The notes under the pieces are model-generated. The model saw only the letters and a program-made list of their open reading frames with translations, had not been told where the DNA came from and did not search any database. Below are positions 1,712-45,658 of a DNA stretch of 45,658 bases, piece by piece. Made by a program: the position numbers and the translations under genes. Position 1 is the stretch's first letter, and each line of letters begins with the position of its first letter. This DNA is from Escherichia phage vB_VIPECOMC04, in sequence record PQ423993.1. The stretch is one strand, 5' to 3'.

Positions 1712-1908
1712 AACCTTGACCCTTCATACTGTTCGCGCAGTTCTTCCTCGTAAGCCTTATTACGCAGTTCTTCCAAAAACAACTTAAACGCCGCCAGTTG
1801 AAATTCACCGTTAATTGACAGTTGCCCGCCTAACGTCTGTTTCTCTGACTCAAGCACCAGAATACGGCGCTCGAGTGATGCGATTGTGATTTTAGGCATT
1901 GGTATCAC
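1708..1908 (-). CDS. hypothetical protein
   Basis: ORF track; overlaps its neighbours by 4 nt. Confidence 0.35.
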   Translation of the reverse strand: MIPMPKITIASLERRILVLESEKQTLGGQLSINGEFQLAAFKLFLEELRNKAYEEELREQYEGSRL

Positions 1909-2077
1909 CTTTGTTCAGGTTGAAGCGGTTAATCAGTTCACGGCGAGTCTCGTAAAGCGACTCTACCATTTGCTCCGCTACTGCGATTTTAGTATTCAGG
2001 ACGTGCATCACGTGGCTGATGTCTACGCCGCTGTTAACGGCCTCTACCATCATCTTTTCGTATTCACGGTCAGTCAT
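1892..2077 (-). CDS. hypothetical protein
   Basis: ORF track; ATG at 2075-2077 overlaps the stop of the 2074..2232 ORF. Confidence 0.4.
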   Translation of the reverse strand: MTDREYEKMMVEAVNSGVDISHVMHVLNTKIAVAEQMVESLYETRRELINRFNLNKGDTNA

Positions 2078-2725: not shown

Positions 2726-3211
2726 TCATTTAACAGCCCTCCCAATAGCCTCAGCCTCTTGCCACGGTTTACCGTCGAACAGCGCCAGACGACCCGCAGT
2801 ACGGCGACGCAGACCAAGTAACGGTTTGCCGTTCTGGTTGATGAACAGCGCCAGCTTAGCCCGCAGCGTCGCGATATTACCAGAACGCAGCGCCTTACCC
2901 GTGCCGGTAGTAGCTGCAATCACGCCAGCACCTGCGTTATACACCAGGTCACACACGGCATCGAACTGTGCCTGTGTCAGTGAATGGTGTGCTGCGGCAT
3001 CAACTGCGGCTACGGCTTTAGCCATATCGCGATTCAGTAACAGGAGGCCTTGTCCTGGAGTGATAGTCTTACCTGGGGTTACGTCAGGCCCATAGTGCCC
3101 GTAGCCTATAGTCAGGTACTTCTCGTTCGGTGTCGCGCGGTAGGCGGTCCCGCGGAAATCCTCCCACGCGGCGGTGAAATGCAGTCCATTATCTGAAATA
3201 TTTCGAGACAC
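2726..3211 (-). CDS. endolysin, GH24 (T4/P22-type) lysozyme
   Basis: Motifs AAWEDFRGTAY and TIGYGHYG match the lysozyme family; start placed at GTG 3209-3211, which has GGAGGG 7 nt upstream (the track start at 3262 is TTG). Confidence 0.75.
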   Translation of the reverse strand: MSRNISDNGLHFTAAWEDFRGTAYRATPNEKYLTIGYGHYGPDVTPGKTITPGQGLLLLNRDMAKAVAAVDAAAHHSLTQAQFDAVCDLVYNAGAGVIAATTGTGKALRSGNIATLRAKLALFINQNGKPLLGLRRRTAGRLALFDGKPWQEAEAIGRAVK

Positions 3212-3461
3212 GCTTATGCCCTCCGTATGACAGCCACGCCTGGCGAATCTGGCGCAGCGCAACTAATGTGATTAATGCCTCAGGCAACGTCGGTGACATG
3301 CTGCCCTGTAACAGGTGGATACATCCGGCGGCGCAGACAATAGCAGTCAGGATATATAGCACCCTGCCAAATAACCCGTCGTCAACGCTGGGGTGATACA
3401 CATTAAACAGCGATGTGCCTCCGATTGCCAGCATACCGCCGAACCAGAATAACTCATTCAT
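3189..3461 (-). CDS. putative holin or antiholin (90 aa, two predicted TM segments)
   Basis: ATG at 3459-3461 with GAGGAGG upstream; two hydrophobic helices and a charged C-terminus; directly upstream of the endolysin. Confidence 0.5.
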   Translation of the reverse strand: MNELFWFGGMLAIGGTSLFNVYHPSVDDGLFGRVLYILTAIVCAAGCIHLLQGSMSPTLPEALITLVALRQIRQAWLSYGGHKRVSKYFR

Positions 3462-3762
3462 CTGTGCCTCCTCGACGCGCGATGTATTCTCCGGCGACGA
3501 TACCGGAGAGGCGGGAATAGATAGGCATCCAGAGAATTGCGATGATGAATCCCAGGCCAGCGATTTCACGCTCGCCGGTAATACCGAACCATTGAGCGGC
3601 AAGAGGTGCACCAAATACGGCGCAGGTGAAGCCAGTTGCGATAAAGCAGAAGCCGTCGATATGGCCGGAAATAGCGGACTTATGCTGTCGTAGTCCGATT
3701 ACCCCACCGGCTAGTGCGGCAGCCAGAAGCCAGCCTGTCACTGTTTCAGTAAATTTATCCAA
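3454..3762 (-). CDS. putative holin (membrane protein)
   Basis: ORF track; several hydrophobic segments; first gene of the lysis cassette. Confidence 0.45.
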   Translation of the reverse strand: MDKFTETVTGWLLAAALAGGVIGLRQHKSAISGHIDGFCFIATGFTCAVFGAPLAAQWFGITGEREIAGLGFIIAILWMPIYSRLSGIVAGEYIARRGGTDE

Positions 3763-3821: not shown

Positions 3822-4262
3822 TTATCCTAATAGTTGTTTGGTAATAATCTTGCCGCCGGTGTTGGTGTCGAACTTCGATGCAACGGCTACGCCACCATGC
3901 GCCGAATACCCACATTCCATAGCCGCCAGTGCATAAGGAGAGCCGGACCCAACGGCGGCAAAGCCGTCTGCAATTGGAATAACCGAACTAAGGGCACAAT
4001 CCCATGATTTGTAGAACTCCACCTTACACAACGTTTCTATGTCTTTAACCCACACCAGGGCAGAGAAATCAAAATCATAATGCTTAGGCACTAAAATACC
4101 GTCGTCCTTCACTAAAAGGATTCCAACCCCGGCATCACCAACCACCCCGATAACAACAAATTCGTTCTCATATATCTTTGTGTCTGTGTTGTAATAGTTA
4201 CTTCCACTCACAACACGCGTGTCACAAGCCATTGTCTTTCCGTCGAATGCGATAGTAGTCAT
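3822..4262 (-). CDS. HslV-like / proteasome-beta-like Ntn-hydrolase peptidase
   Basis: N-terminal MTTIA (Thr directly after Met) and GSGSPYALAA match the E. coli HslV MTTIV and GSGGPYAQAA signatures as recalled; about 30 aa shorter than HslV. Confidence 0.6.
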   Translation of the reverse strand: MTTIAFDGKTMACDTRVVSGSNYYNTDTKIYENEFVVIGVVGDAGVGILLVKDDGILVPKHYDFDFSALVWVKDIETLCKVEFYKSWDCALSSVIPIADGFAAVGSGSPYALAAMECGYSAHGGVAVASKFDTNTGGKIITKQLLG

Positions 4263-37038: not shown

Positions 37039-37740
37039 TTATTTCCTCAGGGCTTTAAGTTGCCGTTCAAATTCGGCAGGGTTCGATTTATACAGGGCTA
37101 AACGCTCTGCTTCACTCATGTCTTTAAACGCTGGTGCGGCCCCGCCGCCTTTGCTACCGGAAGCCCCGCCGCCGGAAGCTGCATTTGCTTTAATCAAATG
37201 CGAAAACGCTTTGTGTTCACGCAGGTATTTGCGGAACTGTTCCGGGTCAGTTGTGATTACGTTACCGTCTGCGCCGACAAACTTAGTAACCACGTCATCG
37301 CCTTCGAACTCAGTCTTAACGAACGGAGCGAGAATGTCTACCGCTTCCGGGGTAATAAAGTCGCCCGCGAAAGAGCCTAACACCGCTTTACGTTCGCTGC
37401 CGAGGATGCGCTCTGCCATTCTGGAGATGCGACCATCTTTCTCGGCTAACACCGGGTCATACTGGCTACGAATCGTCTTTTCGAACTCATCCATCTTACC
37501 AGCGGCTTTTAACGCCTCCTGGTGTGCGCGCTGCCGTTCTTCTTCAGCCTCTTTTGCTTTACGAGCGGCTTCTTTCTTCTCCGCCAGCAATGCTTCCTGA
37601 TTAGCCTTAAGCCCGGCGACTTCTTTTTCAATCAGCGCCTGAACTTCTTCAGCAGTGAACATTTTCGGCGCGTCACCGCCGCCAGATTTATCTTCTGCCC
37701 CAGCTTCTTCCTGGAACGGATAGCGTAAAAAACGATTCAT
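37039..37740 (-). CDS. scaffolding protein
   Basis: Start moved to ATG 37738-37740; Ala/Glu/Lys-rich coiled coil; directly upstream of the capsid gene. Confidence 0.55.
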   Translation of the reverse strand: MNRFLRYPFQEEAGAEDKSGGGDAPKMFTAEEVQALIEKEVAGLKANQEALLAEKKEAARKAKEAEEERQRAHQEALKAAGKMDEFEKTIRSQYDPVLAEKDGRISRMAERILGSERKAVLGSFAGDFITPEAVDILAPFVKTEFEGDDVVTKFVGADGNVITTDPEQFRKYLREHKAFSHLIKANAASGGGASGSKGGGAAPAFKDMSEAERLALYKSNPAEFERQLKALRK

Positions 37741-37822
37741 AGTCAGTATGTCCCCTGGACGTTGGAACCCGGGCCACCCGGATTTACATGTCAAGAATAA
37801 ATTATTCCAACATGCAAGGCAA

Positions 37823-38062
37823 CTATTCCAGAATATTCCTCACGTAATCCTGCAACATGAACACTTTCAGTCTCAGTTGCCGTGCGCATTCGGCGTTCTG
37901 AACGTCGATAGCTAAATCCTCGTCCGCGTCGCTACTTGGCGGTGCCAGTTTGCACGGTGGTTGCATCATCGTCGTATCCGGGGATGGAATTGGCGTTTGC
38001 AACGGCGCGGGACTTGAGCACCCGTAGCACCCTATAACTAAGAGCAATATTGGCAGTCGCAT
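37823..38062 (-). CDS. Rz1-like outer-membrane lipoprotein (o-spanin candidate)
   Basis: Signal peptide with lipobox-like LLVIGC, then proline-rich SPAPLQTPIPSP. Confidence 0.45.
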   Translation of the reverse strand: MRLPILLLVIGCYGCSSPAPLQTPIPSPDTTMMQPPCKLAPPSSDADEDLAIDVQNAECARQLRLKVFMLQDYVRNILE

Positions 38063-38607
38063 TTGAAAAAATCTCCATGTAGCTTCTTGGCAGCTTGCAC
38101 GTAGGCCATGTGTGCGTCGACGGGGGAGTCGAACTGACCGAGATATTTGGTCTTGTTGCGGATTCTTATGTCCGCACGGAATCTGCCGTTCGGGAACCTA
38201 GAAACCCCCTTGAACCCTGTACTATTAGCGGACGTGAGACCAACGTTACGGCTGTTCTCTTGGCTAGTAGCAAGCCTGAGATTTTCTATACGATTGTTGA
38301 GTGGGTTCCCGTCAATGTGGTCTATCTCATATGGTGTCGGAATCGGCCCATTGAAAAGTTCCCATATAAGCCGGTGCGCTTGAAACGCCTTACCCATCCA
38401 TCTAACCTCTATCGTCTGTCGCCGTTTTGCGCCTTTCGGCGTGGTCAGGCACCCTGCCGGGGTTCCTGTTTTATTAGCGAGCTTACTGCTACGCCAGTAA
38501 AGAACCCCATCGTCGTAGTAGAAAGTATCATTCAGTATAGTCATATCCTGGTATCCCGTTTGCATTGCTGATAGCGTCGTATTTGACTCTAACTCTATCA
38601 GCGTCAA
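38038..38607 (-). CDS. HNH homing endonuclease with AP2 domain
   Basis: HRLIWELFNGPIPTPYEIDHIDGNPLNNRIENLR plus AP2-like segment; overlaps both spanin candidates; true start probably internal. Confidence 0.75.
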   Translation of the reverse strand: MTLIELESNTTLSAMQTGYQDMTILNDTFYYDDGVLYWRSSKLANKTGTPAGCLTTPKGAKRRQTIEVRWMGKAFQAHRLIWELFNGPIPTPYEIDHIDGNPLNNRIENLRLATSQENSRNVGLTSANSTGFKGVSRFPNGRFRADIRIRNKTKYLGQFDSPVDAHMAYVQAAKKLHGDFFKCDCQYCS

Positions 38608-38887
38608 ACTTGCAAGATACTTTATTGGGCCTACTTATGTACTTAACGACTTCACGGGTAATCACCTCTGATTTCGTCTTGCCTTCGTTGTCGGCGGCTG
38701 CGGCCTTTGATTCATCCTGCTGCTGCCGTTGTGTTTTCTTCGCTAACTCAGCCTGCGCTTTCTGCTGTTGCTGCGAAACGAGATTCGCCCGGCCTTCATT
38801 CCAGCCGCTGCGGTACTGATAGATGCCGTGTGCGTAAGCCAGGATGATGAAACATGCTCCTGCTACGACAGTTGCTTTAAGATTCAT
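38528..38887 (-). CDS. Rz-like inner-membrane spanin candidate
   Basis: N-terminal TM anchor MNLKATVVAGACFIILAYAHGIY, then a Q/A/K-rich coiled coil. Confidence 0.45.
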   Translation of the reverse strand: MNLKATVVAGACFIILAYAHGIYQYRSGWNEGRANLVSQQQQKAQAELAKKTQRQQQDESKAAAADNEGKTKSEVITREVVKYISRPNKVSCKFDADRVRVKYDAISNANGIPGYDYTE

Positions 38888-39138
38888 GTTTCCCCTTTCT
38901 CGATAAGTAAAGCCCCGCCTTAAAGCGGGGCGCTAGTCCTTATCATTTAAACATAGAAACGGCGTAATCTCAGTAAACCAGTTACTTTTTACACAAGCAA
39001 TAGAGTATGGCCCTTCCGAACGCGTCAGCGTAACTACACTCAGGACTTACGTCCCGCTCCGTTACCTGCCCGCGCCGCGGTCGCTTGTTCATACTTCACA
39101 AGCTCAGGTGGAGCTTAGCACATTTTTAGTGAAAAGTC

Positions 39139-39154
39139 AACTATTCGAATAGTT
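39139..39154. promoter_or_regulatory. perfect 16-bp palindrome built from the operator half-site
   Basis: AACTATTCGAATAGTT; same GAATAGT/ACTATTC half-sites as the promoter operators but in everted order; abuts a TTGACT hexamer on the minus strand. Confidence 0.4.
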
Positions 39155-39206
39155 TATTCCAACGTTTACAATTGAGTGGAATAACTGGAATACGTAAATA
39201 AATAGT

Positions 39207-39235
39207 TTGCGCGCACCAACATAATAGGGTACTAT
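39207..39235 (+). promoter_or_regulatory. sigma70-like promoter (class B) with operator palindrome
   Basis: TTGCGC-17-TACTAT; palindrome TAATAGG-gt-ACTATTC at 39222-39237; 28 nt upstream of the mini-clamp ATG. Confidence 0.55.
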
Positions 39236-39262
39236 TCGGTTAACTTAAACAGGAGATGAGAA

Positions 39263-39784
39263 ATGGTTACTACAGTAATTACTTTCCCTGCGTATGTAGG
39301 GGCGAAAATATGCAGGGCTAAAAATGATGTTCGCTACTATTTGAACGCTTTTTACATAGACCCTGAAGGATTGATAGTGTCTACGGACGGTCATAGATTG
39401 TTCTGCGACAATGTGAAGACCAACGTTGAGAAAGGGACTCTCATAGACATCAAAGGGAGAGAGCCTTCTAAATTTAACTACGCGGAGGTAAACCACGACA
39501 ACGGCAGTGTATCTTTCTATGACGATAATCGTGCGCTTATATGTACACTTCCGGTAGATGTTGTAGAAGGAAACTTTCCTGACTGGAGACGCGTGGTGCA
39601 CATCACACCGGGTGTTGTCGATAGTATAGGGTTCACCCTGCGCTATTTGGCAGACGCGTACAAGATTTCTAAGGCATACAAAAATGAAATTGCTCGTTTC
39701 GATTTCCAGGACCAAACCAGAGGATGTAAAATACTATTTTCAAACACGGCCTTTATGGTGTTAATGCCTGCGCGATTTAAATAA
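39263..39784 (+). CDS. truncated beta sliding clamp homolog (DnaN domain II plus C-terminal segment)
   Basis: DVRYYLN, TDGHRL, GNFPDWRRV, IGFTLRYLAD and VLMPARF align with E. coli DnaN DVRYYLN, TDGHRL, GRFPDYRRV, IGFNVSYVLD and VVMPMRL as recalled; AGGAG RBS; own promoter and terminator. Confidence 0.8.
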   Translation: MVTTVITFPAYVGAKICRAKNDVRYYLNAFYIDPEGLIVSTDGHRLFCDNVKTNVEKGTLIDIKGREPSKFNYAEVNHDNGSVSFYDDNRALICTLPVDVVEGNFPDWRRVVHITPGVVDSIGFTLRYLADAYKISKAYKNEIARFDFQDQTRGCKILFSNTAFMVLMPARFK

Positions 39785-41382: not shown

Positions 41383-42864
41383 TTACTGCTGAGTGACATC
41401 TTGTTGCTGCGCCGACTGCGGAATCTCTCCTGCCACCTGAGTAACAGCACCTAACGGCAGAGGTGCGTCCTCAATAGCGTTCTGAATATCCTCGTCGGTC
41501 CAGTCAGTCACCCCTGCTTTACGCAACGCGGCGTAGTAAGCGGTCGCTGGCAGCAGACCGGTATTAATGTCCGCCATCCACTGAGCGCGGTCCTGAGCGG
41601 TCATCGGTTGCAGGAAGAACTCCATGTTAAGTTTGAACTCAATTTCAGTACCGTCACTAAGCCCAAGCATACCCGCAACCCATTTCAGCGCATCGGTATA
41701 CGCCATGCTTACATTACGCGCGATTGTCGCCATAACGGACGTGTCAGCGCCGCGTTGCAGGCGGGCGGATTCAGCGGTAATTTGCTGCGTCGGGGTAATA
41801 AGCTGCGCACCAATCTGGATAGCCTGATTCTCTTTATCCAGCATATTCTGTTTGGCGAGGTTGTTCTCTCCGGCCTGAACAAGAAACGCATTGCCGCCGG
41901 AGCCGATGTTATGGCCTGAACGCGACCCCATGCGCACGCCGTGTGGGTTGGCTTCTTTCCACTGTTCCATGCTCATGTTCTCACCGGGGGCGATGAACAG
42001 AGTGGGCTGGCCTACAACGAAGCTGGATTCCTCATTGTCTGCGCTGTTGCGGAAATGTCCGATATTAAGCTCAGCTAACGGTAGCAAAGGTGCATCGTCA
42101 ATGGTGGCATCGTTGTTGCTCGCCCCAATGAACGTGAACGGGATTTTGCCGCGTAACTGTTCGCCGAGTTCCGGGAAGATTTCGATTACTTCGCCCTGAG
42201 CGCCACCCTCGGCGTCGAAACGGTAAATGCGCTGGCGGTAGCGACCATCAATCAGGTCAAGGACGCGGTACTGTTCACCGAACTTAGTTTCGAACTCTGC
42301 TCCAGGTTCTGAGTATTCCCACACTTCACGCAACACGACCATCGTCACACGGTTAACAGAACCGACGCGGGTCAGTCGCCAGTTGATGATGTTCTCTGCG
42401 GTGTAGAATGCGATGACTGGGTTTAATAACCCTGCGTTCTGTTCAGCTGCCGTTGCGGCAGCAGTCTCCGGGGCGTCAACCAGCAACCCACCACGTCCTA
42501 TCGAGTTAATCTCCATTAACGTATCCTGCGCGTGCTGCCACAGCCCGACGCCTGAACCGTCAGCGTTGTGCAACAGGTATTCCAGTTCATGCGGGATAAT
42601 TTGCTCAGGGTCTTTACGCATCACCGACCCCGTCATCCCCGCCAGGGTACGTTTTGTGAAATTGTAGCAGATAGCGCCTTTCTCGTATTCTTCCTGTCGC
42701 TGTGCTGCGTAGGTCGGGTCAGGCTCGTTCTTCCCGACGTTGCGCAGGTAGCGAATAAGGTCGCCCTCCAGCGCGTGGCGTACCTTCTGCCATTTATCGA
42801 AGTGGTGCAGCCATTCCCGGTGTTTTGTCTTAACACCCTGATTCTGACCGTTCATAGTTAACAT
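41383..42864 (-). CDS. portal protein
   Basis: 493 aa; position between terL and the morphogenesis gene. Confidence 0.65.
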   Translation of the reverse strand: MLTMNGQNQGVKTKHREWLHHFDKWQKVRHALEGDLIRYLRNVGKNEPDPTYAAQRQEEYEKGAICYNFTKRTLAGMTGSVMRKDPEQIIPHELEYLLHNADGSGVGLWQHAQDTLMEINSIGRGGLLVDAPETAAATAAEQNAGLLNPVIAFYTAENIINWRLTRVGSVNRVTMVVLREVWEYSEPGAEFETKFGEQYRVLDLIDGRYRQRIYRFDAEGGAQGEVIEIFPELGEQLRGKIPFTFIGASNNDATIDDAPLLPLAELNIGHFRNSADNEESSFVVGQPTLFIAPGENMSMEQWKEANPHGVRMGSRSGHNIGSGGNAFLVQAGENNLAKQNMLDKENQAIQIGAQLITPTQQITAESARLQRGADTSVMATIARNVSMAYTDALKWVAGMLGLSDGTEIEFKLNMEFFLQPMTAQDRAQWMADINTGLLPATAYYAALRKAGVTDWTDEDIQNAIEDAPLPLGAVTQVAGEIPQSAQQQDVTQQ

Positions 42865-43019
42865 AGATATAGACCCTCGGGTATGGGTGTCAAAAGCCTA
42901 ATAAAAATTAGGTTGCAAGTCACCAGAAACTCGCTACTGCGAGTTTTACTTGCACCGGGCTGGCGGTCAATATATCTTATCATTAAGCAGATAAAAATGA
43001 ATTGTTGGAGGGGGTACGC

Positions 43020-44399
43020 ATGGGCAGAAGAATAACTGAAGAAGAAATCAAAAACCGGTTAGCTATGTTTGGGTTTAAATTGGTTAAATATGGCGGGTCG
43101 CAAGTAGCAAAATCCGTTATAAAATGCCCCAATGGACACGAGGAATTGAAGTCGCTTAACACCTTCACAGCTAATGGTGTGCGCTGTAAATCTTGCGCTG
43201 CTGCTGAAAGGAGTCTGGCGTACAGCACCGACGAGACCGAAGCGAGAAGGATAGTCGAGGACATGGGGTATTCGCTGATAAAATACGGCGGCGATTTGTA
43301 CCGCAAAAAATCTACCGTCCAATGTGCAAACGGTCATGTGCGCGAAGTTCGCATAGGAAATATGGTTAAGGGTCATCGCTGCAAAAAGTGCGTGGCGGAA
43401 GCAATGTGTTTGGCGGAAGACGGGGTTAACACCAGACTACCAGATGGGGTCAAGATGGATTTTTACTGCGGCAACACGCGGGGGCTTAGTCTATTTTCTT
43501 GCGAAAAAGGGCACTCGTGGTCCGCATCCGTGAATAACGTAGTGTCTCAACAAACGAAATGTCCTAAATGCTCTAATAACGTAAGTGGTATGGAAAAAGA
43601 AGTTCTGTCGTTTATCCGCGGAGTATACCCAGGTGTTGTCAATACGTCCGTACGGTCGCTTATCTCGCCGTTTGAGCTGGACATAGTATTGCCGGAGATT
43701 AAGGTGGTCATAGAATTTAACGGCATCTATTGGCATTCCGAGGCGAATGGTAAACACCGTAACTACCACATAAATAAGAGATTAGCGTGTGAGAAACTTG
43801 GGTACAGGCTGATAAGCGTACGAAGCGACCTTTGGTTAGAGAAGCGAGAGCATATTGAGCGCATTTTGAAGAACGCGGTAGGGGTACGTACTGTGTCTAT
43901 TTTTGCCAGAAAATGTCGTGTGGTAGAAATAGCCAACAAAGACGCATTCCGGTTCTGTGAGGACAATCACATCCAGGGTGGGACAAAGGCTACAAAAGCG
44001 TATGCATTACTTCACGCTGGTGAGGTGGTTGCGGTAATGACTTTGGTACATTGGCGCAGCAAGGACTCATGGGAGCTGGTGCGATATTGCACCAGTACGT
44101 CCGTGCCCGGTGGCCTAAGTAAGCTGTGGAAACATGTGACGCAAGAAAACAACATTAAGCAAGCGTTCACTTATACCGACCGTGACCTTTTCACCGGTGC
44201 ATCTTACGCAGAAGCTGGGTTTATATTTGATAGCTGCTCCGTAGGGTTTCGCGTTGTCGTAGGAACTCGTACAGAATCCCGCCAGAAATGGGGCAAAGCT
44301 CCTGATGGTCTTACCCAAACAGAGTGGTACGAACGAGAAAAAGTGACGCGCATATGGGATAGCGGTCAGGATAAGTGGGAATGGGTTAAAGGGGCATAA
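43020..44399 (+). CDS. homing-endonuclease-like protein (three Cys4 zinc-ribbon repeats plus nuclease-like domain)
   Basis: ATG 43020 with GGAGGGGG upstream; repeats CPNGHE...CKSC, CANGH...CKKC, CEKGH...CPKC; ELDIVLPEIKVVIEFNGIYWHSE resembles Vsr/DUF559-type nuclease cores; opposite strand to its neighbours. Confidence 0.45.
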   Translation: MGRRITEEEIKNRLAMFGFKLVKYGGSQVAKSVIKCPNGHEELKSLNTFTANGVRCKSCAAAERSLAYSTDETEARRIVEDMGYSLIKYGGDLYRKKSTVQCANGHVREVRIGNMVKGHRCKKCVAEAMCLAEDGVNTRLPDGVKMDFYCGNTRGLSLFSCEKGHSWSASVNNVVSQQTKCPKCSNNVSGMEKEVLSFIRGVYPGVVNTSVRSLISPFELDIVLPEIKVVIEFNGIYWHSEANGKHRNYHINKRLACEKLGYRLISVRSDLWLEKREHIERILKNAVGVRTVSIFARKCRVVEIANKDAFRFCEDNHIQGGTKATKAYALLHAGEVVAVMTLVHWRSKDSWELVRYCTSTSVPGGLSKLWKHVTQENNIKQAFTYTDRDLFTGASYAEAGFIFDSCSVGFRVVVGTRTESRQKWGKAPDGLTQTEWYEREKVTRIWDSGQDKWEWVKGA

Positions 44400-44411
44400 G
44401 CCCCTTTTTAC

Positions 44412-45658
44412 TTAAAGTGCGAAAGTCACCGGGATGTTGATTACTGGTTTAACCACCGGCATCTCGTAAACTACCGGATAGCCGAGAGCATCCGCCATAT
44501 GGTCAATGACGCCGTCTTTAGCCGGCTCTCCGTTATCGTCGTATGCCTGCTGCTCCAGCGTCTTGGCTATCTCGGGGCATAAGTGGTCGTTAACCCACAG
44601 CTTACCTTTTTCCAGCGCGGTATTCACGGCTAAAACACGGTCTTTAACCGGGGGGTTGGCAGATTTAGCGCGAACATCAAAACCGGCCTGCTGTAGTAAC
44701 GCGATATCTGAGATTGATGCCGAGTTGGTCTTGCGGTTCTTGCCGCTGGCGTCGGGGTAAACGACTATGCGGTGGCCTTGTGACTTCCACTTCTCAGTAA
44801 TCACTCTCACCGTGTCCGGCGTATCAAACATGCCTTTCAGTTCTGCTACTGCGTGCCACCCGTTCGGGCGTTGCACATACACGGCGCTGGCGTTCTTCGT
44901 AACGTTGAAGTCCTGCCCGATGTACAGCGTGTCGCCTGGCTGTATTGTCTCTTTGCTGCGGTGTTTACGGCGGTCGTATGCGTAATACACGCTGCCGGAT
45001 GTCAGGTTAACGAACTCACCATTCAGGTAGGCGTTAATCAGTTGCGCCGGGTAAGTCTCGGTTAGTGAGCTAATGTAATCCGGGGGGAGGAACCGCGCAT
45101 TCTCGTGTGTGGAAGCCTGCACCATTGAGTAACTAGGTGTCGGGTTCTCTTTGAACTTGGCATAGACGAACTTGAATCCCTCCGGTGTCGTGGTAACGGA
45201 GATGTGGTTTACCACTCCAGGGATAACCAGACGCATACGGGCTACGATTTTGTTCCACGCCAGTTCCGCTTTCTCGCGGCTCAGAACGTCCAGTTCATCC
45301 ACGACCGCCGCGGCGATTTTGAAGCCGACTATCGAGCCAGGATTATCCATCGAGCGGCAGATAACGGTCCCGAGCACCGTCTTTCCGCGAGTAACCACGA
45401 CTTCTTTGTCGCCAGATTTAACCAGTACATCAAGGCCGAGCAGGTTAGCTGCTTCCTCGAATGTCGGATAGAAGATGTCACGGATAGCGGGGTATGTTGG
45501 GCCGAAGTAGCCCAGGCGGGTACCGGGATGCTTGAGCATGAACGTAAGCAGGTCCAGACAGCCGACAAATGTCTTGCCGCTGCCGAAGCCCCCGACATAG
45601 GCCTTGTATTTATTGTCGCAATTCAGGAACAGTGCCTGTGGTGCGGATAGTTGAATAC
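44412..45658 (-). CDS. terL: terminase large subunit (N-terminal end runs off the window end)
   Basis: Frame stays open upstream of the track start to the window edge and encodes Walker A GGFGSGKT; Walker B AAVVDELD; C-terminal nuclease-like region. Confidence 0.85.
   Translation of the reverse strand, partial: IQLSAPQALFLNCDNKYKAYVGGFGSGKTFVGCLDLLTFMLKHPGTRLGYFGPTYPAIRDIFYPTFEEAANLLGLDVLVKSGDKEVVVTRGKTVLGTVICRSMDNPGSIVGFKIAAAVVDELDVLSREKAELAWNKIVARMRLVIPGVVNHISVTTTPEGFKFVYAKFKENPTPSYSMVQASTHENARFLPPDYISSLTETYPAQLINAYLNGEFVNLTSGSVYYAYDRRKHRSKETIQPGDTLYIGQDFNVTKNASAVYVQRPNGWHAVAELKGMFDTPDTVRVITEKWKSQGHRIVVYPDASGKNRKTNSASISDIALLQQAGFDVRAKSANPPVKDRVLAVNTALEKGKLWVNDHLCPEIAKTLEQQAYDDNGEPAKDGVIDHMADALGYPVVYEMPVVKPVINIPVTFAL

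Follow-up and report, generated by a model that had tools for sequence, protein, structure and literature searches.

An HNH-AP2 endonuclease cassette as the probable cause of separation of an overlapped spanin gene pair in a Kagunavirus genome

In the T5 spanin family, seven members are overlapped gene pairs, and in Shivani and phiR201 a homing endonuclease gene of the GIY-YIG family separates the two genes (Kongari et al. 2018, BMC Bioinformatics 19:326, PMC6139136). The authors presented this case as 'caught in the act', pointed out that either an insertion or a deletion must regenerate the lipoylation signal, and left the direction of change open (PMC6139136). In the same study, K1G, K1H and Jersey make up one overlapped spanin family, of which the separated form is the FSL_SP-031 type (PMC6139136). 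Here we describe the spanin locus in a 45,658-nucleotide (nt) stretch of DNA from Escherichia phage vB_VIPECOMC04 (PQ423993.1; the whole stretch is called the window below). Three overlapping minus-strand open reading frames (ORFs) lie there between the scaffold gene and a clamp-like gene, and they encode a putative inner-membrane spanin (i-spanin), an HNH-AP2 endonuclease and a putative outer-membrane spanin (o-spanin). We consider it likely that a Jersey-family spanin pair was switched from overlapped to separated by a free-standing HNH-AP2 cassette of the homing type; judged by the reading frames, each spanin is still one complete, intact gene after the split.

The same cassette is present in fEg-Eco19 with 95–96% DNA identity, where the o-spanin differs by the substitution G11W. 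In the paper on that phage, gp25 is named i-spanin, gp26 HNH and gp27 o-spanin, and the split is not discussed (OL539727; PMC9038960). The GenBank record of fEg-Eco19 has gp25 and gp27 as 'hypothetical', and gp27, whose full o-spanin locus is 1824..2063 (minus strand), is cut to 48 amino acids (aa) without the signal. A literature search found no paper describing a spanin split in Guernseyvirinae. The type of event is already known from T5-like phages, and this locus is a well-resolved example of it rather than a new phenomenon; our analysis adds the precise limits of the cassette, its dual-coding junctions, relics from which the polarity can be read, its distribution over several lineages and the data on selection. 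The current picture of spanins and homing endonucleases stays unchanged.

Likeness to Shivani and phiR201 is close, in that an overlapped pair is separated in a few members by ∼0.6–0.7 kb with a free-standing homing endonuclease gene, while differences are confined to the very C-terminus in the i-spanins and to the lipoylation signal in the o-spanins. The gene found here is nevertheless of the HNH_3 plus AP2 type and not GIY-YIG, the spanins are of the Jersey family, and the phages are Guernseyvirinae. Moreover, in contrast to the T5-family report, both junctions are dual-coding, relics give the direction of change, and several divergent lineages carry the cassette. Within the Jersey family, neither the overlapped nor the separated form described so far has an endonuclease gene, and the o-spanin signal starts MRLPIL... 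in our sequence, compared with MKSLSTLKRL... in overlapped Jersey and MNKLF... in the separated form. Genes in pieces created by free-standing homing endonucleases are reportedly found in T4-like phages, the examples being nrdA with mobE in Aeh1 and the topoisomerase genes gp39/gp60 in T4. There, too, an endonuclease gene is said to lie inside coding sequence while the host function survives in pieces; in those cases, however, one gene reportedly became two polypeptides that reassemble, whereas here two overlapping genes would have been released from their overlap, each of them complete.

The i-spanin (Rz-like, 119 aa; 38528..38887, minus strand) has a match to PHROG 2536, 'Rz-like spanin' (E 1.9e-50), and shares 81% identity with the protein annotated as i-spanin in phage Schulenburg (P0088). 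Hydropathy shows a single hydrophobic stretch at its N-terminus (a transmembrane domain, TMD, at about residues 3–21), with a predicted inner-membrane anchor at codons 3–19, LKATVVAGACFIILAYA (38831..38881, minus strand; Kyte–Doolittle mean 1.94 over 17 residues), and Cys92 is present and nearly invariant among homologues. An AlphaFold monomer has helices at 3–84 and 96–109 with low confidence (mean predicted local distance difference test score, pLDDT, 65), which is consistent with a putative long periplasmic i-spanin helix. The o-spanin (Rz1-like, 79 aa; 37823..38062, minus strand) matches PHROG 5672 (E 8e-30) and PHROG 1267 (E 2e-18), both 'Rz-like spanin', reads MRLPILLLVIGCYGC..., carries 9 Pro in its mature part, and shares 94% identity, across 84% of its length, with the Sciku and Shashou o-spanin (P0121). 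Thus the earlier note, made from this sequence before our analysis, was right to call the two ORFs an Rz-like protein with a membrane anchor and an Rz1-like, proline-rich protein, and the Schulenburg homologue is annotated as an i-spanin. In searches of ∼5.8 billion proteins, with the genomic context described for members where it could be retrieved, the 119-aa homologues of the i-spanin formed four clusters (P0001–P0004), and the o-spanin homologues that share the MRLPIL start formed a group of 78–80 aa.

Between the spanins lies the gene of a free-standing HNH_3 plus AP2 endonuclease of 168 aa (38038..38544, minus strand), recognized from Pfam (HNH_3, E 7.7e-23), PHROG (PHROG 99, E 4e-59) and PDB matches; the Pfam AP2 match (E 2.5e-6, 28.1 bits) is below the gathering score of 33.3. 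I-HmuI is an HNH nicking homing endonuclease from an intron of Bacillus phage SPO1. The HNH core aligns to its structure (PDB 1U3E, E 0.0018) with E-I-D-H-I-D-G-N...N-N...N-L-R, the catalytic D-H...N...N motif being intact; unlike I-HmuI, the protein is encoded with no detectable intron, and an AP2 domain forms its DNA-binding module. The homologues all begin MTIL(N/S)(D/E)TF, and other lineages have a stop codon just upstream; we therefore take ATG 38544 as the start, and a 189-aa protein from TTG 38607 is ruled out. The earlier note had correctly seen an HNH-AP2 ORF between the spanins and overlapping both, but its limits of 38038..38607 began too far upstream. With the corrected start, the overlap is 17 nt with the i-spanin (80 nt with the start at 38607) and 25 nt with the o-spanin. 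The protein ends ...LHGDFFKCDCQYCS*, and its Cys-rich tail C-D-C-Q-Y-C (38038..38062, minus strand) is invariant in all lineages, whereas outgroup HNH-AP2 proteins mostly stop 4–8 residues past HGEF and lack it; the tail may serve the endonuclease, for example in metal binding, or be a by-product of dual coding.

Other identities for this gene were considered and rejected. Rfam gave no group I or II intron match at E ≤ 1 within 37500..39300, and an intron would have no space because the HNH ORF overlaps both neighbours in other frames. An intein does not apply, as the ORF is in frame with neither spanin. Finally, it is not a terminase-associated packaging factor: the gene is not beside the terminase, and its type is the HNH_3/AP2 homing type.

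In Ivi, Schulenburg and other phages that lack the HNH gene, the same site carries an uninterrupted spanin pair, a 128-aa i-spanin and an 87-aa o-spanin that begins inside it and runs past its stop; the overlap of these genes, which we regard as the ancestral ones, is ∼155 bp. DNA alignment with Ivi and Schulenburg places the putative mobile cassette, ∼616 nt that replace 47 nt, at ∼38021..38636 (minus strand). On the left, identity with both phages is lost at base three of i-spanin codon 84 (∼38636), and on the right it is regained at TGCTCAAGTCCC, the codon of o-spanin Cys15 (38020). The cassette thus contains i-spanin codons 85–119, the HNH gene and o-spanin codons 1–14, and the o-spanin now starts 466 nt downstream of the i-spanin stop. 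At the left end of the cassette the i-spanin 3′-end is divergent (..SRPNKVSCKFDADRVRVKYDAISNANGIPGYD versus ..KTPGRSVCTFDDARVLLKSHAVANANSIPGYD-DDAAAVQTGTAK in HNH-less phages), and the old 12-residue i-spanin tail is gone in the form with HNH. The earlier note had read the locus as a homing endonuclease insertion into a two-gene locus and had proposed comparison with relatives lacking it. The interrupted pair stands, because near-identical HNH-less relatives are uninterrupted at the same site; plain insertion is nevertheless an incomplete description, because the ancestral genes overlapped by ∼155 bp, and the cassette brings new ends for both genes and leaves relics of the old ones.

Both junctions are read in two frames. 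The i-spanin C-terminus is ...IPGYD-YTE*, the HNH ATG arises within the i-spanin codons TAT GAC (Tyr-Asp), and the YTE* after GYD is HNH sequence, so that the final 3 codons and the stop of the i-spanin lie inside the HNH gene. At the other junction, the o-spanin ATG sits in the HNH codons ..AAA TGC GAC TGC.. (K-C-D-C), and the first 8 o-spanin codons (MRLPILLL) share DNA with the HNH tail CDCQYCS*. Nine nucleotides upstream of this ATG is the Shine–Dalgarno sequence GGAGA (38072..38076, minus strand; read from the sequence), which is made by HNH codons of the conserved H-G-D/E motif (CAT GGA GAT); GGAGA or GGGGA is kept at the same place in the loci L004, L005, L009, L010 and L014.

Relics of both old gene ends survive around the cassette. 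Under the o-spanin, in its −1 frame and not joined to the i-spanin, lies a relic of the ancestral i-spanin C-terminus, ..RAVANANSIPGYDDDATTVQTGTAK* (37932..38018, minus strand). It matches positions 102–129 of the PHROG 2536 profile (E 1.7e-6) and occupies the same position as the C-terminus still in use in Ivi and Schulenburg, with the same stop. The motif '..AV.NAN.IPGYD' is accordingly present twice, live upstream of the HNH gene and dead under the o-spanin, and the two copies are strongly diverged. The relic is unbroken in this phage, L004 and L010, and has stop codons in L005 and L009, as expected where only the o-spanin frame constrains the sequence. The former start of the o-spanin persists in the i-spanin's +1 frame as VKSLST* (38635..38655, minus strand), GTG AAG TCG TTA AGT ACA TAA, closed by a stop, where frame translations of Ivi and Schulenburg give VKSLSTLKRLAAAC.... 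Because relics of both old ends survive, the overlapped pair would have come first and been pulled apart afterwards; they argue for insertion into an overlapped ancestor with duplication of ∼60 nt of the shared region. A 48-aa ORF at 37932..38078 (minus strand), with its own ATG and with neither TMD nor signal, is the dead ancestral i-spanin end.

The spanin region is 95–96% identical to that of Kagunavirus coliphages. With this region as query, 482 phage records matched, and it was covered end to end only by fEg-Eco19 and its RefSeq copy, i.e. by one isolate. In ∼100 other Kagunaviruses both flanks match and ∼570 nt are absent between them. The HNH gene is thus present or absent at one site among Kagunaviruses that are 95–96% identical, with this phage and fEg-Eco19 on one side and ∼100 phages on the other. 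A search for a donor among isolates, with blastn and tblastn in 50,697 phage records, returned the cassette from fEg-Eco19 only; the next-best isolate match was 45% identical and was found at other loci.

In the protein searches, this HNH forms a clade of five clusters (P0180–P0184; 59–99% identity, tail (F/Y)(K/R)CDCQYCS), with the next relatives at ≤51%. Wherever context was available, namely for four of the five clusters (P0180–P0183; P0184, on a 927-nt contig, was left out), the gene has the three-gene context, while the next relative with context examined, P0186 (46%), has unrelated surroundings. The order i-spanin (118/119 aa), HNH (168–171 aa), o-spanin (78–83 aa) is found in the divergent Guernseyvirinae-like phages L004, L005, L009, L010 and L011 and in the Kagunavirus-like genomes L014–L020, and the arrangement occurs in at least four further divergent metagenomic lineages. 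Across loci the i-spanin/HNH overlap is invariant at 17 nt, the HNH/o-spanin overlap varies from 25 to 31 nt, and the spanin ORFs are intact in all of the more than 10 loci. For five lineages, Nei–Gojobori estimates of the ratio of nonsynonymous to synonymous substitution (dN/dS) are 0.14–0.49 for the i-spanin and 0.07–0.30 for the o-spanin; for the HNH gene the proportion of nonsynonymous differences (pN) is ∼0.2 against a saturated synonymous proportion (pS) of 0.74–1.0, and dN/dS is 0.07–0.08 where measurable. Since these ratios are well below 1 and synonymous sites are saturated for HNH, all three genes are under purifying selection and have long been kept functional.

Identity is distributed in a mosaic. 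Between L004 and L005, i-spanin codons 1–83 are 69% identical and codons 84–113 95%, the HNH genes are 90% identical, and in the o-spanin codons 1–15 are 96%, codons 16–36 68% and the remainder 63% identical, so that the borders coincide with those of the replacement in Kagunavirus. In L005 and L009, by contrast, the o-spanins are 92% identical and the HNH genes 69%. Read as a record of exchange, this identity pattern shows the cassette moving as a unit. Homing with co-conversion of flanks is suggested because the presence/absence polymorphism and the cassette-shaped mosaic are its expected footprint.

A further arrangement was seen in L006 (2237..2825 of a Logan contig, SRR22560134), where a Kagunavirus-like i-spanin is joined to a 'separated' module that lacks HNH. 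This i-spanin has 118 aa, ends GYDHE* and is nearly identical to that of our phage over the first 83 residues; the o-spanin begins MNKLF...ITGC, and the two genes overlap by 8 nt. The short 118-aa i-spanin ending at GYD is like that of the FSL_SP-031 separated type in the Jersey family. By adding the HNH-less separated type, L006 brings to three the alternative modules found at this junction on the same backbone.

A mechanism consistent with these results can be proposed. The cassette would have arisen once, in an overlapped ancestor, by insertion together with duplication of ∼60 nt of the shared region; it would then have spread among Guernseyvirinae-like phages and recently entered a Kagunavirus backbone. 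The replacement of 47 nt would most likely result from recombinational repair triggered by the endonuclease, i.e. intron-less homing with co-conversion of the flanks. In this process the i-spanin would receive a replacement 3′-end, GYD plus 3 HNH-derived codons, and the o-spanin would receive a Shine–Dalgarno sequence, an ATG and signal codons overprinted on the final 25 nt of the HNH ORF. The insertion point itself is unlikely to be the target of the presumed endonuclease activity, because the old 'GYDDD' region stays intact downstream of HNH; the replaced 47 nt, i-spanin codons 85–100 of HNH-less phages, would be the obvious candidate.

Both spanins are probably functional. In that case the inner membrane would hold the anchor of the i-spanin and the outer membrane the o-spanin lipoprotein, and the pair would act after the distant holin and endolysin. 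The lost i-spanin tail is dispensable, because the HNH-less i-spanin of L006 also ends at GYD, and Kongari et al. (PMC6139136) concluded that an i-spanin can bind its partner without its extreme C-terminus. Function is also favoured by fEg-Eco19, a viable, plaque-forming lytic phage with the same cassette (PMC9038960). In the o-spanin, the predicted signal peptide and lipobox region occupies codons 1–15 (38018..38062, minus strand; motif tests and o-spanin alignment), the N-terminus being MRLPILLLVIG-C12-YG-C15-SSPAP..., with Cys37 and Cys59 further on, and the signal of the Kagunavirus copies being MRLPILLLVIG-C-(Y/C)-G-C. VIG|C12 fits the simple DOLOP motif [LVI][ASTVI][GAS]C, and position +2 holds Y or S rather than the D that would speak against outer-membrane sorting. 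In the alignment, the lipobox Cys of every other lineage stands at the position of Cys15, and these four lineages have canonical lipoboxes (LAGC, LVGC, LSAC) there.

Several observations weigh against homing into a pair that stayed functional. Cys12 and Cys15 both fail PROSITE PS00013 (the signal is too short, and a Cys stands at −3 of Cys15), and the fEg-Eco19 o-spanin with G11W (MRLPILLLVIWCYGC; VIWCYGC, W at −1 of Cys12) fails both lipobox tests, so that in the Kagunavirus copies the o-spanin is a putative lipoprotein with an atypical lipobox. The cassette is rare, with one isolate among ∼100 Kagunavirus records. In IMG/VR, searching with the HNH protein yielded no more than two distant endonucleases (38–40%), and the exact pattern of the HNH/o-spanin junction was looked for and had no match. 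Ordinary mosaic recombination between phages could move the cassette without homing, and strong purifying selection on HNH over deep divergence is not predicted for a purely selfish, decaying homing endonuclease gene. These last points would suit an HNH gene that has been domesticated and vertically kept, either because its ends encode spanin parts or for some other late function, and carried about by ordinary mosaic recombination. The low dN/dS of HNH with saturated synonymous sites across five lineages, the invariant dual-coding with the spanins at both ends of its ORF, and the rarity of the allele among isolates would all fit. We nevertheless think domestication unlikely: dual-coding ends leave the conservation of the whole catalytic core and of AP2 unexplained, the D-H...N...N motif is intact, and presence/absence in genomes 95–96% identical, together with a cassette-shaped mosaic, are classic footprints of homing and co-conversion.

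Atypical lipoboxes, with none at all in fEg-Eco19, and loss of the 12-residue i-spanin tail would also be compatible with the insertion having inactivated the spanins, leaving pseudogene remnants in phages that lyse without a spanin complex. Spanins are indeed dispensable under shaken laboratory conditions, as for lambda Rz/Rz1. This account is very improbable: every one of the more than 10 loci has intact ORFs, dN/dS stays far below 1 over a divergence that reaches saturation, the other four lineages conserve the TMD, the Cys residues and a canonical lipobox, and natural HNH-less relatives have a short i-spanin as well. Equally remote is the opposite polarity, with the separated form carrying HNH as ancestral and the overlapped form produced by HNH deletion. 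Diverged direct repeats ('..AV.NAN.IPGYD') flank the cassette and could in principle mediate a deletion, and for T5/Shivani the direction was left open (Kongari et al., PMC6139136). Deletion between the repeats would, however, take away the o-spanin start. The i-spanin-like segment under the o-spanin, decayed in L005 and L009, requires a prior overlapped state, and the old o-spanin start within the i-spanin is a closed relic. The overlapped form is, in addition, in the overwhelming majority among Jersey and Kagunavirus phages (PMC6139136). On balance, insertion of a homing-type cassette into an overlapped pair, with both genes retained, remains the reading we prefer.

A stronger version would be that the HNH cassette is a self-sufficient 'gene-splitting' module, still actively homing in Guernseyvirinae, whose spare ends for both spanin genes, overprinted on the ends of its own ORF, would let it enter an overlapped, dual-coding pair with no function lost. 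The module would also be effectively addictive: because the o-spanin starts inside the HNH ORF, its clean loss would disable lysis. We offer this tentatively and would bet slightly against it. If true, addiction would account as well for the exceptionally strong purifying selection on HNH, the locus would be the first spanin architecture switch (from overlapped to separated) with a direction readable from relics, and homing endonuclease genes would have a general route to resolve gene overlaps. More generally, the locus suggests a testable means by which a selfish endonuclease gene could secure its retention through a link to a host lysis gene, and it offers phage biology a clean natural experiment on the separation of overlapping genes. 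For annotation, the spanins of Kagunaviruses with HNH are easily mis-called, as in the GenBank record of fEg-Eco19, and the 48-aa relic ORF may pass as a gene.

The window is a complete Kagunavirus (Guernseyvirinae) genome, reverse-complemented and circularly permuted, and ∼96% identical to fEg-Eco19, in which bases 1 and 45658 of the window are adjacent. On one side the spanins adjoin the scaffold gene (37039..37794), and on the other the clamp-like gene (39263..39784, plus strand), which is oriented opposite to them; the coordinates of both neighbours agree with the earlier note, where the spanin ORFs were placed between the scaffold gene and a mini-clamp. The endolysin and two holin-family ORFs lie at 2726..3762 (minus strand; PHROG endolysin E 1e-47, holins E 6e-33 and 5e-29). 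The distance of roughly 35 kb given earlier reflects where the circular genome was opened; measured across the sequence ends it is ∼9.5 kb, and 7.9 kb in fEg-Eco19. Nor is it unusual, as had been supposed, for the spanins to stand apart from the lysis cassette. The interval between scaffold and clamp genes is the spanin site in all Kagunavirus or Jersey-type relatives examined, and T4 is the classic published case of spanins apart from the lysis genes (Kongari et al. 2018, PMC6139136); thus a site remote from holin and endolysin is normal across the genus and has published precedent. A second spanin or a u-spanin was searched for beside the endolysin and not found.

Just upstream of the i-spanin ribosome-binding site, a terminator-like GC hairpin followed by a T run (38912..38931, minus strand) is conserved in relatives. 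The clamp-like ORF at 39263..39784 carries conflicting names: it matches PHROG 3007, 'RusA-like Holliday junction resolvase' (E 9e-36), and also PHROG 947, 'processivity factor' (E 8e-9), and its relatives in GenBank are named DNA polymerase III sliding clamp or beta subunit. Directly upstream of the two holin ORFs is an HslV-family peptidase-like ORF (3822..4262, minus strand; PHROG 1040, E 5.5e-35). Between the portal gene (41383..42864, minus strand) and the large terminase gene (44412..45539, minus strand), a 465-aa ORF lies on the opposite strand (43002..44399, plus strand), with a Pfam match to the treble-clef zinc finger DUF4379 (E 3e-7) and a weak nuclease-like match to REase_MTES_1575. 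The stretch of ∼1.5 kb around it (42878..44411) is without counterpart in fEg-Eco19, and the region has the look of another free-standing insertion of the endonuclease type, the second in this genome.

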